DNA of 64,000 bases from an uncultured Formosa sp. GTDB taxonomy: Bacteria > Bacteroidota > Bacteroidia > Flavobacteriales > Flavobacteriaceae. Below are positions 6,809-13,356 of the stretch, in pieces. Position 1 is the first letter of the stretch. Each line of letters starts with the position of its first letter. The stretch covers positions 14,968 to 78,967 of the forward strand of contig NZ_CANMTH010000011.1 of the NCBI RefSeq assembly GCF_947500765.1, in the 5' to 3' direction. Below the pieces are notes generated by a model, which was not told the origin of the DNA, searched no databases, and saw nothing but the letters and a program-made list of their open reading frames with translations. The position numbers were made by a program, and so were the translations under genes.

Positions 6809-8068
6809 TTATAAATTTTCCCATTTAAACATAGGTTTTATATAACCAGGTTCTTTACCCATATAACTTCCAATTTCTAAATCACCGTTAATTACTGTAA
6901 AACTCAATATATTATCTTCAACCCATACTGCTCGTTTTCCATCCTTAACGAAAAAGAATTTAAGAAAGAATGTTCCAGGGTTAAAAAAATAGGCAGGAAC
7001 AATAGTTTTTAAGTGATTTTTACCTTTATTTAATTTTATTTCAGTTTTTAAATGATGAAAACTGAATAGAGTATCACCTTCATCGTTTATTAAATGGAAA
7101 GTGACATGATATTTTTCAGGTTCACTATCAATATTTAATATTGTTTCTAAAACTATTTCTTCAGACTCTACAATAACAGCTTCATTATCTCTATTAAGAT
7201 TGCGTAATCCTATTTCTAAAAGTTCAAAAACTCCATCTTGTTTTAAATCACTAAACTTCCTAACGTTGTTAATTATAACATTTCCTGATTTTAAATAAAA
7301 ATTCACAGCTTCTTCTGTTCCGCCTTCAAAAACAGTTTTGCCATTTTCAAGGACAATGGCTCGGGTACATAAATTCTTAACCGCAGCCATATTATGACTC
7401 ACAAACAACACAGTTCTCCCATCTCCCTTACTTATGTCTTGCATCTTCCCAATGGCCTTCTTTTGAAATTCAGCATCACCCACGGCCAGTACCTCATCTA
7501 TCACTAAAATATCGGGCTCTAAAAAAGCCGCTACAGCAAAAGCTAAACGTACACGCATCCCAGAAGAATAGCGTTTTACAGGCGTATCTACATAGCGTTC
7601 GCACCCACTAAAGTCTATAATCTCGTCTTCTTTGGCTTTTATTTCAACCTTAGTCATTCCTAGAATGGCTCCGTTTAAGTAAATATTTTCACGCCCCGTT
7701 AATTCCGGATGAAACCCTGTACCCACTTCTAATAAACTAGCAATACGGCCACGGGTTTTGATTTCTCCTGTGGTTGGGCTGGTTACCCGCGACAAGATTT
7801 TTAATAAAGTCGATTTTCCTGCACCGTTTTTACCAATGATTCCTAAGACTTCGCCTTGTTGCACTTCAAAATTAATATCTTTAAGTGCCCAAGCATATGC
7901 ACTCTTACCTTTACTACTACGATCGTTAACTTCTCCAATCTTTAAATACGGATCTTCCTTTCCTCGAATACGATGCCACCAACGGTTTAAATCGTGACTA
8001 ATAGTACCTGTACCTATCAATCCTAGGCGGTATTGTTTACTTATATTTTCTGCTTTAAGGATGATCAT
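6809..8068 (-). CDS. wzt: Polysaccharide ABC transporter ATPase with C-terminal Wzt carbohydrate-binding extension
   Basis: GKNGAGKST, LLEVGTGFHPELTGRENI, YSSGMRVRLAF, DEVLAVGD, VSH; about 160-aa C-terminal beta-rich domain. Confidence 0.93.
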   Translation of the reverse strand: MIILKAENISKQYRLGLIGTGTISHDLNRWWHRIRGKEDPYLKIGEVNDRSSKGKSAYAWALKDINFEVQQGEVLGIIGKNGAGKSTLLKILSRVTSPTTGEIKTRGRIASLLEVGTGFHPELTGRENIYLNGAILGMTKVEIKAKEDEIIDFSGCERYVDTPVKRYSSGMRVRLAFAVAAFLEPDILVIDEVLAVGDAEFQKKAIGKMQDISKGDGRTVLFVSHNMAAVKNLCTRAIVLENGKTVFEGGTEEAVNFYLKSGNVIINNVRKFSDLKQDGVFELLEIGLRNLNRDNEAVIVESEEIVLETILNIDSEPEKYHVTFHLINDEGDTLFSFHHLKTEIKLNKGKNHLKTIVPAYFFNPGTFFLKFFFVKDGKRAVWVEDNILSFTVINGDLEIGSYMGKEPGYIKPMFKWENL

Positions 8069-8148
8069 TACTTATAATGGGTTGTATTGGTTTTTGGTCA
8101 TTTACTAACGTTTACAGACTATAGTAGCCCGTCTACCAAAATAATGGG

Positions 8149-8156
8149 CTAATATA
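8149..8156 (-). promoter_or_regulatory. Putative -7 promoter element (TATATTAG) for wzt
   Basis: One-base variant of Bacteroidota TAnnTTTG about 80 bp upstream of wzt; the same variant lies upstream of wzm (13376-13383). Confidence 0.4.
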
Positions 8157-8291
8157 ATAAAAGCATACGACTTAAAAGTTTTGAATTATTATTAATTCTA
8201 GGACTTAAAAATTCACCGCTTAAAAAAAATCCCCCACAAAACGGTATCATAAAATCAACTGAAATACAGCACAAAAAAAAACCCCATAGAA

Positions 8292-8650
8292 CTGTCAAGC
8301 ATAGCAAGGCACGCAGCGAAGCATCTCATCAATAAAACCTAAATCATGAAACCAACTGTCATGCAGAGCGAAGAGCAACGAAGCGAAGCATCTCACGAAC
8401 AAAACCACAAATCACAAAACCAACTGTCATGCAGAGCGCAGCGAAGCATCTCTCCAATAGAACCTAAATTAAAACATCTAGTAAATAAGATTCCTCCTAC
8501 CGTCGGAATGACATTGAAACCCAAATCATGAAACCATCTGTCATGCAGAGCAAAGCGAAGCATCTCTCCAATAGAACCTAAATCACAAAACCAACTGTCA
8601 TGCAAAGCGAAGAGCAACGAAGCGAAGCATCTCTCCAATAGCACCTAAAT
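8292..8650 (+). repeat. REP-like palindrome array I (about 5 TGTCATGC..GCATCTC units plus one inverted GTCATTCC..GGAATCT unit)
   Basis: Repeated CTGTCATGCAGAGCGCAGCGAAGCATCTC-type cores separated by about 30-bp AC-rich, mutually similar linkers. Confidence 0.92.
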
Positions 8651-8663
8651 TACTTTTAACAAC

Positions 8664-8888
8664 TCACCATTTCACCAACTTACCATTAACCACCCGACTA
8701 AGCAAAGCCCGTAACACATCATCATAAGGCACTTTAAAATACTCACTATACTCCCGAATAGTAACCTGTTTTCGATTAACAATATTATATTCCTGACGAA
8801 TATCTTGTATGTATCGCTTAGCCGTTTTGTTACAAACCCCCATAAGGATTGCAACATCATTACTATTTAAAAACATACGATATCCCAT
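8664..8888 (-). CDS. Small (about 70-74 aa) putative helix-turn-helix DNA-binding protein
   Basis: LNSNDVAILMGVCNKTAKRYIQDIRQEY...QVTIREYSEYFKVPYDDVL fits an excisionase/MerR-like HTH pattern; start moved from 8984 to the ATG at 8888 (or 8876). Confidence 0.6.
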   Translation of the reverse strand: MGYRMFLNSNDVAILMGVCNKTAKRYIQDIRQEYNIVNRKQVTIREYSEYFKVPYDDVLRALLSRVVNGKLVKW

Positions 8889-9306
8889 TCTGTATAACAC
8901 TTTATACCATTGCCATGTATTATTATATTTTAACGAAATAACCTCTAATATGAACCACCAACTCCACTGAAAGTAAAACATCACAACCCAATAAAAAGAG
9001 AAAATGAACTAATGCAAACCCAAATTCAAGTGAGGAAAACATGCGAAGACCTTGAAGACTAAAACCCACAACACACTCATAATAAGACGATTATTATTTT
9101 TTTCAACACAATAAAAGTGCCATAAATAAAAAAACGAAGTAAATACTTGCAATAAAATGCATTTTAATCCTACAATACACTTAAAAAAATCGGTAGCTCC
9201 ATCGCCACTAAATCAGCTATATCACTGACCTAAACGCTATAATAAAGCATCTGAGAGACGCCGTTTAAAAAAAAAGGATAAAATAATAAATCAAGGCTTT
9301 ACTACA

Positions 9307-9350
9307 GATACGTCATATCAAAGCCATACCAAAGCCATAGATACCTTATG
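9307..9350. repeat. Four 11-bp tandem units
   Basis: GATACGTCATA TCAAAGCCATA CCAAAGCCATA GATACCTTATG. Confidence 0.6.
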
Positions 9351-9390
9351 GGGAGTATATGAAAACCTATAGCCCACAGCATGATAAAAT

Positions 9391-9490
9391 CTAGAAAAAA
9401 CAGGAATAAACAGGAATAAACAGGAGGATATAGGACGATATAGGAAATTCTAATACGAAATAAGAAATTGTAAGAACATTAAGGAACCTT
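9391..9490. repeat. Phased 10-bp repeat tract (about 10 units)
   Basis: (C/T)AGGAA or TAAGAA-like motif starting at 9401, 9411, 9421, 9431, 9441, 9461, 9471 and 9481. Confidence 0.7.
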
Positions 9491-9725
9491 TTAAAAAACG
9501 ATAAAGCTCTTATTGTAATTTAGAACTAAGAGATCGCATAAACCCATGTATTGTTGAATAACATGTAAGCATTAGCCAAACGCATCCCGGGGACCTACAT
9601 AGGTTTATAGATCATAAGTTTTAACCGCAGGTTGTAGCACATCGAAATGCACAAAACAGCTAAAATCACGCATGAGTTTGTGGCTAAAATTCAACAGTTA
9701 TAACCTGCATAAATTTTATAAGATC

Positions 9726-10475
9726 ATGGCAAAATACAAATCATTATTTAATGTAGAAGGCTCTATCGGAGAGGTAACCTTCTATAAAGGAGAAGACGGA
9801 TACTACATCCGGTCTAAAGGCGGTGTAAGCAAAGACCGCATATTAAACGATCCTGCGTTTGTGCGAACACGAGAAAACAATACTGAATTCGCACAATCGG
9901 CAACATCTGGCAAGCAACTGCGGCACGCCATTACAGCCTTGTTAACAGATGCTAAAGATAATCGGATGACATCCAGATTAACACAAGTGATGAGTCGTGT
10001 GAAGAATGCCGACTTAACTTCAGCAAGGGGGCAACGAAAAGTAAGTATCGGAATCACAACTAACGATGGTAAAGATGCCATTAAGGGATTCGACTTTAAC
10101 AACAATGCGCTTTTAAACAGTGTTTTACTTGAAGCGTTTACATTAGATACTACGACTGGCGAAATTAGTATACCTAATTTTATACCCTCGCAGCAGTTAA
10201 ATAGCCCAAGCGGTGCAACACATGTGAGTTTTAACGCAGGCTTCTTAAATCTGAATTTCAACGATAACATTTCAGATTTACAAGTCAGCCCTACTGTAAA
10301 TTTAGTCATTAACAACACAGCAGCGCCCTTAACGTTAACGCCCGCAACCACGCCCACAGGTACTGGAACCCCGTTTTATTTTTTTAAGATTACATTCTAT
10401 CAAGATGTAAACAACACCCAATACCCCTTAAAAAATGGAGCCTTTAATGTCTTACAACTTATTGAAGTATTGTAA
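9726..10475 (+). CDS. 249-aa hypothetical protein of a family I recognise as recurrent in Bacteroidota; function unknown
   Basis: Long ORF with its own terminator; EGSIGEVTFYKGEDGYYIRSKGG...NDPAFVRTREN N-terminus, helical middle, beta-rich C-terminus; likely start MAKYKS at 9726. Confidence 0.8.
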   Translation: MAKYKSLFNVEGSIGEVTFYKGEDGYYIRSKGGVSKDRILNDPAFVRTRENNTEFAQSATSGKQLRHAITALLTDAKDNRMTSRLTQVMSRVKNADLTSARGQRKVSIGITTNDGKDAIKGFDFNNNALLNSVLLEAFTLDTTTGEISIPNFIPSQQLNSPSGATHVSFNAGFLNLNFNDNISDLQVSPTVNLVINNTAAPLTLTPATTPTGTGTPFYFFKITFYQDVNNTQYPLKNGAFNVLQLIEVL

Positions 10476-10494
10476 ACAAGGTGTATCCCATTTT

Positions 10495-10525
10495 AAAATC
10501 CTCGTCCCCCCGAGGATTTTTTTTT
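10495..10525 (+). terminator. Intrinsic terminator
   Basis: AAAATCCTCG-TCCCCC-CGAGGATTTT followed by a T-run, 20 bp after the stop. Confidence 0.85.
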
Positions 10526-10539
10526 AAATCAAACCAGTA

Positions 10540-11585
10540 ATCATGCAAAACAAAGTAAAGCATCTCTCCTATAGAACCTAAATCACAAAACCAACTGTCA
10601 TGCAGAGCGGAGAGCAACGAAGCGAAGCATCTCACCAATAAAACCTAAAATCACAAAACTAACTGTCATACAGAGCAAGGAACGCAGTGAAGTATCTCTC
10701 CTATAGAACCTAAATCATAAAACCAACTGTCATGCAGAGCGCAGTGAAGCATCTCACCAATAAAACCTAAAATCACAAAACCAACTGTCATACAGAGCAA
10801 GGAACGCAGCGAAGTATCTCTCCTATAGAAATTAAATCATAAAACCATCTGTCATGCAGAGTGAAGAGCAACGAAGCGAAGCATCTCACCAATTGAACCC
10901 AAATCATGAAACCATTTGTCATACAGAACGCAGCAAAGCATCTCTCCTATAGAACCTAAATCACAAAACCATCTGTCATGCAGAGTGAAGAGCAACGAAG
11001 CGAAGCATCTCACCAATTGAACCTAAATCATGAAACCATCTGTCATGCAGAACGCAGTGAAGCATCTCTCCTATAGAACCTAAATCATAACATACAATAA
11101 ATAAGATTCCTCCTACCGTCGGAAATCGTAGATTCGACGCAGTCAATGACATTGCCCCCAAAATCATAAAACTAACTGTCATGCAGAACGCAATGAAGCA
11201 TCTCTCCAATAAAACCTAAAATTACAAAACTAACTGTCATGCAGAGCGCAGCGAAGTATCTCTCCAATAGAAACTAAATTTAAACATCTAGTAAATAAGA
11301 TTCCTCCTACCGTCGGAATGACATTGAAACCCAAATCATGAAACCATTTGTCATACAGAGCAAGGAACGCAGCGAAGCATCTCACCAATAAAACCTCAAT
11401 CATGAAACTAACTGTCATGCAGAGCGCAGTGAAGCATCTCACGAACAAAACCTAAATCAAAACATCTAGAAATAGATTCCTCCTACCGTCGGAAATCGTA
11501 GATTCGACGCAGTCAATGACATTGCCCCAAAAATCACAAAACCATTTGTCATACAGAGCAAGGAACGCAACGAAGTATCTTTCAA
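10540..11585 (+). repeat. REP-like palindrome array II (about 14 direct units plus 3 inverted ATTCC..GGAAT units)
   Basis: 57-69-bp periodicity of the same core as array I. Confidence 0.95.
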
Positions 11586-11647
11586 TTCACCCCCAATAAC
11601 AAATAATCCAAATTGAATTAGTCACCATTTTTTCATAAATTAATAAC

Positions 11648-11953
11648 ATGAAAACAAAAGGCGCTCATAATTATTATGTCTACATCTTAACCAATAAAAA
11701 CAAAACTGTTTTATATACAGGTGTAACAGGAAATTTAAAAGAACGCTTATACATTCATAACAATCCGCAGTCCTTTTCTAAAGCATTTACAGCAAAATAT
11801 AATTGTATTTTCTTAGTCTATTACGAACATTTTTTCTGCATTGAAACAGCGATCAGAAGAGAAAAGCAAATTAAAGGGTACAGCCGTATAAAGAAAAACA
11901 AACTAATTTCAGAGTTTAATCCTAATTGGAACTTTTTAAATGATAAGATTTAG
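11648..11953 (+). CDS. Stand-alone GIY-YIG nuclease (UPF0213-like)
   Basis: YYVYIL...LYTGVT (GIY-YIG), LKERL (Arg), AIRREKQIK (metal-binding Glu), FNPNW (Asn). Confidence 0.92.
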   Translation: MKTKGAHNYYVYILTNKNKTVLYTGVTGNLKERLYIHNNPQSFSKAFTAKYNCIFLVYYEHFFCIETAIRREKQIKGYSRIKKNKLISEFNPNWNFLNDKI

Positions 11954-11970
11954 AGGTAAGATAAACCTAC

Positions 11971-12450
11971 AAAATCACAATCACAACTGTCATGCAGAGC
12001 GGAGAGCAACGTAGCGAAGCATCTCACCAATAAAACCTCAATCATGAAACTAACTGTCATGCAGAACGCAATGAAGCATCTCTCCAATAGAACCTAAATC
12101 ATAACATACAATAAATAAGATTCCTCCTACCGTCGGAAATCGTAGATTCGACGCAGTCAATGACATTGCCCCAAAATCATGAAACCGACTGTCATGCAGA
12201 ACGAAGAGCAACGAAGCGAAGCATCTCACCAATAGAAACCAAAATCATGAAACTAACTGTCATGCAGAACGCAGTGAAGCATCTCTCCTATAGAACCTAA
12301 ATCATGAAACCAACTGTCATGCAGAACGCAGTGAAGCATCTCTCCTATAGAACCTAAATCATGAAACTAACTGTCATGCAGAACGCAGTGAAGCATCTCT
12401 CCTATAGAACCTAAACCATGAAACCAACTGTCATGCAGAACGCAGTGAAA
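11971..12450 (+). repeat. REP-like palindrome array III (about 7 direct units plus 1 inverted; near-perfect 57-bp tandem at 12244-12450)
   Basis: ATCATGAAAC(T/C)AACTGTCATGCAGAACGCAGTGAAGCATCTCTCCTATAGAACCTAA starts at 12244, 12301, 12358 and 12415 (last partial). Confidence 0.95.
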
Positions 12451-12474
12451 TAGCTTTAAAAGACGACATGCTAA

Positions 12475-13356
12475 CTAAACCGTATCAATAAATTTCTTCT
12501 CTGTACTATTAAAGACTATAAGTCCGAATAAAAACACTAAGACACTCACTATACCAATATACAGCAATTGAGACACAGAAATCTCTCCAACCCCCAAAGT
12601 AATATAACGGAACGCTTCAATAACAATAGTCATAGGATTATAAGCCACAAGCCAAGATACACTTGGTAACTTCTCTTCAAAAAAGGATAACGGATACATC
12701 ACTGCCGAGCCATACATTAATAACTGTACACCAAACGTTACCAAGAAAGTTAAATCACGATATTTTGTGGTCATAGACGAAATAAGCATTCCAAAACCTA
12801 ACCCCAAAAGCCCCATAATAAGAACCAAAACGGGTAATAGTAGTAAACTAATTTGCGGACTTGCAGCATATGCAGCATCGGTAAAACTCACATAATACAC
12901 GTAGAAACCTATAAATACCAATAACTGAATGGCGAATTTCACCAAATTAGACACCACAATAGACATCGGAATAATCACACGAGGGAAATAAACTTTCCCG
13001 AATATGGCTTGGTTTTTTGTAAATGTATCGCTAGTTCCTGTCAGACATTCTTTAAAATAATTCCATGCAGTAATCCCTGCCAAGTTAAACAAAAAAGCAG
13101 GTACGCCTGGCTTTACAGGAATGGCTGCCAAGTTATTAAAAATGACTGTGAATATAATAGACGTAAATAATGGTTGAATAAAATACCATAGTGGTCCAAG
13201 TATGGTCTGTTTATATACCGTGACAATATCACGTTTTACAAATAAGAATAATAAATCCTTGTACCTCCATATTTCCTTAAAATTAAGATCTACTAATTTA
13301 CGCTTCGGAGAAATGGTATATAACCAAGGAAGTTCTTGTTGGTCTGATGGATTCAA
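12475..13356 (-). CDS. wzm: Polysaccharide ABC transporter permease
   Basis: EIWRYKDLLFLFVKRDI...YKQTILGPLWYFIQP, GKVYFPR, NPMTIVIEAFR. Confidence 0.93.
   Translation of the reverse strand: MNPSDQQELPWLYTISPKRKLVDLNFKEIWRYKDLLFLFVKRDIVTVYKQTILGPLWYFIQPLFTSIIFTVIFNNLAAIPVKPGVPAFLFNLAGITAWNYFKECLTGTSDTFTKNQAIFGKVYFPRVIIPMSIVVSNLVKFAIQLLVFIGFYVYYVSFTDAAYAASPQISLLLLPVLVLIMGLLGLGFGMLISSMTTKYRDLTFLVTFGVQLLMYGSAVMYPLSFFEEKLPSVSWLVAYNPMTIVIEAFRYITLGVGEISVSQLLYIGIVSVLVFLFGLIVFNSTEKKFIDTV

Follow-up and report, generated by a model that had tools for sequence, protein, structure and literature searches.

The 64,000-nt stretch of DNA analysed here as a whole (hereafter the window) comes from an uncultured Formosa sp. 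(contig NZ_CANMTH010000011.1) and carries a unit of about 1.9 kb in which a small gene with a helix-turn-helix (HTH)-like product is divergent from a gene for a protein of 249 amino acids. The pair is widespread in Bacteroidota and of mobile-element origin. This ancestry is well supported, and so is the regulatory arrangement, in which a small protein of DNA-binding type, a direct-repeat operator and a divergent gene are combined. We tentatively read the unit as one copy of an unnamed Bacteroidota gene pair derived from mobile elements, in which a repressor gates an effector that binds nucleic acid. What this reading says of regulation and evolution is likely to be correct; the function that it assigns to the effector, a repressor-gated cytoplasmic binder of nucleic acid of the phage-exclusion or locus-maintenance type, is a more doubtful proposition.

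The divergent gene pair and its spacer

The small gene occupies 8664-8888 on the minus strand and encodes 74 amino acids, as judged from the list of open reading frames (ORFs), the translation and the homologues. Its ORF (8664-8984) opens at a GTG at 8984, and the homologues point to the ATG at 8886-8888 (MGYRMFL...) as its conserved start. The gene of the 249-residue protein, whose family is unnamed, lies at 9726-10475 on the plus strand by translation and homologues. It begins at the ATG at 9726 (MAK... in all homologues) and has its stop at 10475; the ORF start at 9672 would add an extension that no homologue has. A control region of 837 bp (8889-9725), partly conserved in Formosa sediminum, is common to both genes. 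A hairpin scan placed an intrinsic-terminator-like structure at 10495-10520 on the plus strand (10-bp stem, 6-nt loop and T-run); it accounts for the single match of an Rfam scan of 8000-12500, a sub-threshold 'Phe_leader' at 10431-10525 (32 bits against a gathering score of 55). All the parts listed in the initial annotation, namely the divergent HTH-like gene, the 249-residue gene, the spacer with phased repeats, the terminator and the flanking arrays, are thus present, with corrected coordinates.

In F. sediminum, Mangrovimonas and Winogradskyella, too, the 249-residue gene is preceded by a divergent small ORF that is homologous to the window's. On short flanks a divergent small gene was found in 18 of 20 loci, and with an improved profile in 33 of the 37 loci of two near clades, so that the neighbourhood check bears out the earlier surmise that both genes recur together as hypotheticals in Flavobacteriia. 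Compared with the F. sediminum copy, the small gene shows 7, 6 and 22 differences at codon positions 1, 2 and 3, respectively, and is therefore under protein-level selection. Its family can be aligned from Flavobacteriaceae to the Cytophagales plasmids of Fulvitalea and Marivirga, that is, across two orders, with the consensus R-CIYPKDIQRITGKSERYGRKLL-IK; both results confirm that the small ORF is a true gene. Within the clade of polysaccharide loci to which the window belongs (see below), the 249-residue protein and its small partner co-evolve, their divergences being correlated (r = 0.83).

The AlphaFold2 model of the 74-residue protein (pLDDT 79) has four helices, of which a pair at residues 9-34 resembles a helix-turn-helix. 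Its fold matches are weak (all E > 0.6) and mostly to winged-HTH DNA binders (RacA, GerE, 434 repressor, MarR, AspA). Searches of Pfam, NCBIfam, PHROG and PADLOC gave no match above threshold for the window's small protein, including none to a Cro, C, Cox or XRE model, and a PDB profile search returned noise only, for instance histone H3. The label 'HTH-like' is plausible in view of the four-helix model and the winged-HTH type of the matches.

The spacer holds four tandem repeats detected by TRF, with periods of 11 bp (2.4 copies, 9314-9339), 10 bp (3.2 copies, 9394-9425), again 10 bp (2.4 copies, 9422-9445) and 20 bp (2 copies, 9435-9473). The putative operator of the small protein consists of about three 11-bp direct repeats of the CCATACCAAAG type at 9314-9353 (plus strand), whose units read ATAT, ATAC and ATAG at 11-bp spacing. 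A second phased set at 9394-9473 on the same strand combines the 10-bp repeats (A-rich GAATAAACAG; AGGACGATAT) with the 20-bp repeat, and similar A-rich 10-bp arrays are found 200-300 bp upstream of the 249-residue gene in three loci of the window's clade (L082, L084 and L076). Of 28 spacers run through TRF, 20 have direct repeats of 11 bp, for the most part with an ATAC(T)TTATCT-type core. The pattern ATAC-N7-ATAC occurs 2.42 times per kb in spacers as against 0.072 times per kb in the remainder of the same loci, a 34-fold enrichment, and the ATACTTTATCT motif is present also on the Marivirga plasmid, 6 bp from the small gene. Motif, period and presence of the 11-bp repeats are conserved across genera and orders, and the co-occurrence of phased repeats with the gene pair, for which the initial annotation had proposed a check, is confirmed.

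The repeats also co-vary, in a qualitative manner, with the predicted recognition helix. Small proteins with a SERYGR or SERYAR helix are found in the same loci as ATACTTTAT-type repeats, while a divergent helix, such as VCNKTAKR in the window, goes with divergent repeats, here CCATACCAAAG. Such a pattern would fit binding of the repeats by the HTH protein. Repeated operator-like sites are accordingly present in the divergent spacer, as in phage-type switches or C-protein control, and their binding is predicted.

Closer to the 249-residue gene, a leader stem followed by an ATAAA box can be read from the sequence at 9627-9713 (plus strand). Nucleotides 9627-9636 pair with 9699-9708, including one G-U pair, and abut the box (9709-9713), which lies 17 nt before the ATG. 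By script, a stem of varying sequence ending at ATAA(A) 15-18 nt before the ATG was found in 10 of 18 loci of the polysaccharide clade, or 11 when the window, read by eye, is added; the controls gave 24% in shuffled upstream sequences and 2 of 40 in other clades. By eye, we could make no convincing placement of a Bacteroidota -33/-7 promoter (TTG / TAnnTTTG), and the sigma-70 promoter scan uses a consensus that is not applicable to Bacteroidota. An invertible promoter was rejected, the inverted repeats within 8600-9800 being only 10-13 nt long, which is chance level.

The 249-residue family and its genomic contexts

The initial annotation had called the module an orphan, which is wrong: the family of the 249-residue protein yields 1550 matches in a collection clustered at 90% identity and 2632 cluster representatives at 50% identity (E <= 0.001). 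Its length is nearly always 248-251 residues, and all members with an assigned taxon are Bacteroidota. The 249-residue protein itself has zero matches above threshold in Pfam, NCBIfam, PHROG and PADLOC, a Pfam scan of 48 family members (the window protein and 47 relatives) gave nothing above threshold, and the family profile found no PDB sequence. An AlphaFold2 model built from a 48-sequence alignment (pLDDT 93, pTM 0.82) comprises a beta-hairpin at residues 12-30, a helical region at 36-133 and an immunoglobulin (Ig)-like beta-sandwich at 139-248, in agreement with the order of hairpin, helices and sandwich foreseen from the sequence. Foldseek returned no match to this model at E <= 0.001 in the PDB or BFVD. 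Its weak matches are Ig-, C2- and carbohydrate-binding module (CBM)-like domains, all aligned to the C-terminal sandwich. As modelled, the protein apparently has a new fold.

The two domains differ strongly in charge. Family means of the net charge are +11 for the N-domain and -5 for the sandwich, and the corresponding pI values for the window's protein are 9.8 and 4.1. Seven Arg/Lys residues of the N-domain are near-invariant (R29, R38, R49, K63, R66, R84 and R104). The sandwich bears a conserved polar and aromatic cluster (T165, H166, Q226, N229, Y233) and has variable loops; the stretches that vary most in the family are 71-80 and 181-200. The strongly basic N-domain is compatible with nucleic-acid binding. 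The N-terminus, MAKYKSLFNVEG, lacks a hydrophobic signal segment, and hence no signal peptide is present.

The nearest named family, by language-model features (0.76), is DUF6266 (PF19781), which has the same N-terminal MA...G..G..G-hairpin-R motif (hhalign, residues 1-51, E = 1.6e-4, probability 50%) and a predicted structure with a TM of about 0.5. One ORF in another genome fuses the N-terminus of the 249-residue family to a DUF6266 body, and both families pair with DUF6943 and co-occur in the same genomes. On the other hand, DUF6266 proteins have 213 instead of 249 residues, the profile-profile alignment is confined to the first 50 residues, and the DUF6266 Pfam model matches neither the window protein nor the 48 family members above the gathering score. 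The window's genome also has a bona fide DUF6266 gene (G000:C2:658275-658865, L030), with a convergent HTH_17 gene. DUF6943 precedes DUF6266 in five other genomes (loci L038-L065) and lies beside the 249-residue gene in six loci, and the 249-residue family is represented in 17 of the 19 genomes that have DUF6266.

For the genomic contexts, 20 kb around 60 family members were fetched and the neighbouring genes clustered, the counts being given over 61 loci, and a maximum-likelihood tree of the family was used to compare phylogeny with context. Context follows phylogeny. The window belongs to a monophyletic polysaccharide clade (15 members, support 100/99, at least 13 genera), whose usual place is between a wzm/wzt/glycosyltransferase block and an epimerase/UGDH/Wzc/Wza block. 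Mean identities within this clade are 74% for the epimerase, 72% for UGDH and 65% for the 249-residue protein, followed by Wzc (60%), Wza (58%), Wzt (56%) and Wzm (54%). The window's lineage is fixed and syntenic in polysaccharide loci and vertically stable. In the window, the 1.9-kb unit sits in a 4.4-kb insert that splits the genes of a polysaccharide ABC exporter, wzt (6809-8068, minus strand; ATPase with ABC_tran and Wzt_C domains by Pfam) and wzm (12475-13356, minus strand; ABC-2 permease, ABC2_membrane, by Pfam and the ORF list). The best match of the 249-residue protein is 98% identical, and the window is near-identical to Formosa algae.

The sister group is a lysis clade of 16 members (support 99/97). 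In 17 of the 61 loci the 249-residue gene is followed, 0-41 bp on, by genes for DUF5675 (PF18925, phrog_1501) and two small membrane proteins, one of 80 amino acids with two transmembrane segments and one of 70 with a single segment; holin-type membrane genes occur in 15-17 sister-clade loci. DUF5675 has been described as a C82-like candidate lysin (bioRxiv 10.64898/2026.04.11.717860). The clade lies on islands that resemble conjugative transposons, its neighbours including genes for RteC, HTH_17 and P-loop proteins such as characterise CTnDOT-like elements. The window's genome has no DUF5675, and no ORF for a lysin or holin partner occurs in 8000-12500, where only the terminator and repeats lie downstream. 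The notion that the 249-residue gene is the first of an operon holds in the lysis clade only (gaps of 0-41 bp); in other loci it is for the most part monocistronic. As a separate observation, lysis-clade loci (L090, L094 and relatives) have a conserved hairpin between the 11-bp repeats and the 249-residue gene, with compensatory changes (TTGACAACAC..GTGTTATCAA vs TTGGAAACCC..GGGTTTTCAA) and a conserved CCATAAAATTACGTGATTTG box; it may serve as an RNA leader or, alternatively, as a further site for a protein.

Other members of the family are on plasmids, seven from Fulvitalea axinellae and one from Marivirga, close to rep, parAB or xerA. On all seven Fulvitalea plasmids the pair is within about 8 kb of one of these genes, and on three it is directly beside rep. 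One copy per plasmid might have indicated a plasmid-specific function; this was weakened by the near-identity of the 249-residue gene on four of the seven, because of which we attribute the pattern to shared backbone ancestry. Four further loci (L066-L069), from four genera, carry near-identical copies of the pair (branch lengths 0.003-0.044) beside a heavy-metal P-type ATPase and metal-binding genes, and thus testify to recent transfer on a metal-resistance element. Type I restriction-modification genes lie within 10 kb of the family in 9 of 61 loci, among them that of the paralogue encoded in the same genome as the window. This paralogue (250 residues, 30% identical; G000:C9:53710-54453, L006 and L125) has no HTH partner and lies between mnmE and an hsdR-hsdM-hsdS type I restriction operon, co-directional with the latter and 356 bp upstream; 3 kb away is an array of 17 copies of a 46-bp repeat. 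The family is present in 54 of 201 genera of the host's bacterial family, with up to six copies per genome, and was not found in a congeneric genome. A sample of the phylum yielded it from nine families or more; one large family, represented by 87 genomes, had no copy. The patchy distribution, the copy numbers of up to six and the near-identical copies in four genera reflect horizontal transfer of the family.

The unit of the window is flanked on both sides by arrays of 57-68-bp repeat units, at 8290-8650 and 10530-11290; a further array lies at 11950-12450. The unit core is CTGTCATGCAGARCG-N4-GAAGCATCTC, and 11 of its 12 pattern matches in the 4.36-Mb assembly fall within 8424-12399 of the window, all in one orientation. 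Related arrays (GTCATTCAGAGCG...GAAGAATCTC) occur near the family members L078, L082 and L071 of other genomes and near the paralogue of the same genome (L125). Since arrays of the flanking type are near just 5-6 of 61 family loci, the earlier proposal that palindrome arrays bound the module does not extend to most other loci. Within the arrays lies a 101-residue GIY-YIG gene (PF01541, E = 2e-14; 11648-11953, plus strand). Homologues of it are found no more than 10 kb from the 249-residue gene in 6 of 61 loci, and a second copy, 52% identical, is on contig C4. A link between the GIY-YIG nuclease and the repeat arrays is possible.

The proposed effector and competing readings of its function

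In the reading that we favour, the 74-residue protein would bind along one face of the helix, at the 11-bp repeats, and repress its own promoter, that of the 249-residue gene, or both. Upon derepression, the 249-residue protein would be made from the leader with its 5′ stem and A-rich start region, and would act in the cytoplasm as a conditional effector, binding nucleic acid through its basic domain. Its likeliest role would be that of an effector of the phage-exclusion or abortive-infection type, the next being maintenance of the host locus. The protein of the sister clade would be coupled to cell lysis, the window's clade having lost the lysis genes or never possessed them. We regard this effector function as possible rather than probable; it is suggested by the conserved basic domain, the tight control, the occurrence on islands, on plasmids and beside restriction genes, and the coupling to lysis in the sister clade.

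Several observations weigh against it. The far clade of the 249-residue family has an HTH partner in just 1 of 24 loci, and the pairing is therefore not obligatory. The HTH-like nature of the small protein is plausible as modelled, but the fold assignment is not statistically significant, and nucleic-acid binding by the 249-residue protein is suggested solely by its charge and conserved basic residues. The PADLOC defence models match neither protein. The window's clade, moreover, keeps its syntenic place in 13 genera or more, at a level of conservation (65% identity) equal to that of Wza, Wzc and UGDH. Defence genes usually turn over fast and long-term synteny is unusual for them, so that this combination is a better fit to a locus-linked, housekeeping-like role.

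The coupling to lysis genes could also mean that the 249-residue protein is itself the cargo, a signal-less exoprotein freed by the DUF5675 lysin and holin-like proteins of the sister clade in a type 10 secretion-like or bacteriocin-like manner. Copies in polysaccharide loci would then be released in some other way and perhaps target the surface glycans of competitors, with the resident locus giving insensitivity. The 17 loci with DUF5675, a C82-like candidate lysin, and two small membrane proteins only 0-41 bp downstream speak for such a release, as does the lack of a signal peptide, type 10 secretion systems (T10SSs) being known to export signal-less cargo (PMC10847048, PMC10109510). The conserved T165, H166, Q226, N229 and Y233 on the sandwich and weak fold matches that include carbohydrate-binding modules would suit a glycan target, and MACPF toxin genes of Bacteroides are reported to be co-acquired with lipopolysaccharide (LPS) glycan genes (PMC6246601). 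We nevertheless consider it rather unlikely, for the window's genome lacks DUF5675, most members of the family are solitary genes, there is no immunity gene, the strict conservation of length and sequence is unlike that of receptor-binding toxins, and a +11 domain with invariant Arg/Lys is more like an intracellular nucleic-acid binder. An extended version would unite the 249-residue family and DUF6266 in a new Bacteroidota superfamily of signal-less proteins freed by co-opted phage lysis genes, of which the polysaccharide-locus lineage would be glycan-directed and antagonistic or surface-acting, its 'immunity' being the resident polysaccharide locus. If true, this would be a lysis-released counterpart of the linkage between MACPF toxin and LPS-glycan genes in gut Bacteroides, but we give it a distinctly small chance.

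The fixed position of the polysaccharide clade could also point to a locus-specific regulator or nucleoid-type protein. The 249-residue protein would bind DNA or nascent RNA and tune long polysaccharide operons, its relatives doing the same for lysis, plasmid-backbone or restriction operons, as a functional analogue of UpxY/UpxZ or RfaH-type locus factors. The gene indeed stands where the conserved export genes (Wza, Wzc, UGDH, epimerase) give way to the variable wzm/wzt/glycosyltransferase block, is as conserved as these export genes and shows a partial correlation with their divergence (r about 0.4). The basic N-domain and the presence of several paralogues per genome would likewise be in line with this role. 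It is nonetheless unlikely in view of the lack of similarity to NusG/KOW, sigma or any known regulator, the usually monocistronic gene, convergent with its neighbours, the relatives in unrelated contexts (metal-resistance elements, plasmids) and a distribution restricted to just 54 of 201 genera that leaves out a congeneric genome.

The plasmid copies raise the question of a module for replicon or island maintenance, be it partition-, copy-control- or addiction-like, in which the HTH protein would bind a centromere- or iteron-like array and the 249-residue partner would stabilise the carrier DNA. The phasing of the direct repeats at 11 bp recalls centromere or iteron arrays, on the seven Fulvitalea plasmids at most some 8 kb separate the pair from rep, parAB or xerA (on three it is beside rep), and there are copies on islands next to restriction-modification genes. 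However, four of the seven plasmid copies are near-identical, so that one copy per plasmid reflects shared backbone ancestry, chromosomal copies in polysaccharide loci need no partition, and the divergent layout is unlike that of toxin-antitoxin pairs. The 249-residue protein has no motif or fold of a nucleoside triphosphatase (NTPase), and no family or fold match to a cytomotive NTPase partner (Walker, actin-like or tubulin-like, as in ParR/parC- and TubR/tubC-like systems) was obtained. Maintenance by such a module is in our estimation highly unlikely.

The initial annotation had imagined a minimal non-autonomous element or satellite whose 249-residue protein coats DNA as a capsid or filament subunit. 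Although a basic N-terminal arm joined to a beta-sandwich recalls the capsid proteins of small viruses, the length is strictly 249 +/- 1 residues and lysis genes come after the 249-residue gene in the sister clade, we dismiss this idea as most improbable: there is no significant capsid fold match in the PDB or BFVD, no homologue in a tblastn search of 50,697 phage records, no relative in the IMG/VR pattern scan or the PHROGs, and no replication, packaging or integration gene accompanying the pair. No recombinase ORF is encoded in 8000-12500, and the inverted repeats seen in 8600-9800 are at chance level only. The absence of a recombinase, the syntenic position and an evolution as slow as that of the neighbouring export genes argue that the window copy is not itself mobile, and 'minimal non-autonomous element' does not describe it.

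Significance and comparison with known systems

The 249-residue family is very large, length-conserved and unnamed, and has no domain model, solved relative or significant fold match; nevertheless both a partner gene and a DNA motif are conserved with it, and its contexts obey clear rules, the gene standing at the conserved/variable junction of polysaccharide loci in many marine Flavobacteriaceae, in plasmid backbones and at the head of non-phage lysis cassettes. Its function, once found, would annotate thousands of genes and might bring to light a novel principle of phage exclusion or regulation in Bacteroidota, or else a novel system of lysis-dependent release. The predicted interaction between the HTH protein and the repeats lends itself directly to simple assays.

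Like the genes of UpxY/UpxZ and RfaH-type factors, the pair is a small accessory set that polysaccharide loci retain; a genome has several paralogues of it, and its leader is long and structured. It differs from them by the lack of NusG/KOW homology, an orientation that is usually antisense to the biosynthesis genes, and close relatives in unrelated contexts. The sister clade, for its part, is reminiscent of T10SS and lysis cassettes such as Serratia ChiWXYZ, the Salmonella chitinase and typhoid-toxin systems and that of Yersinia entomophaga (PMC10847048, PMC10109510, PMC13284979) in that a signal-less gene is followed by DUF5675 and holin-like genes outside phage, with a local regulator. Unlike in T10SSs, neither the window copy nor its genome provides a lysin or holin partner, and the candidate lysin of the sister clade is a C82-like DUF5675 and no known T10SS hydrolase.

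The unit can finally be set beside lambda cI/cro with rexAB, P2 C/Cox and the PvuII C protein, where a small HTH-type protein is divergent from its presumed target gene. The sites of our pair are 11-bp direct repeats and not palindromic operators, the small protein matches no Cro, C, Cox or XRE model, no prophage surrounds the genes, and no relation of the 249-residue protein to RexA or any other phage protein was detected. As in phage repressor and C-protein switches, however, repeated operator-like sites lie in the common spacer, and the pair is found on mobile DNA and beside restriction systems. By analogy with RexA, the 249-residue partner would be cytoplasmic, and in the sister clade small membrane proteins are encoded downstream of it.

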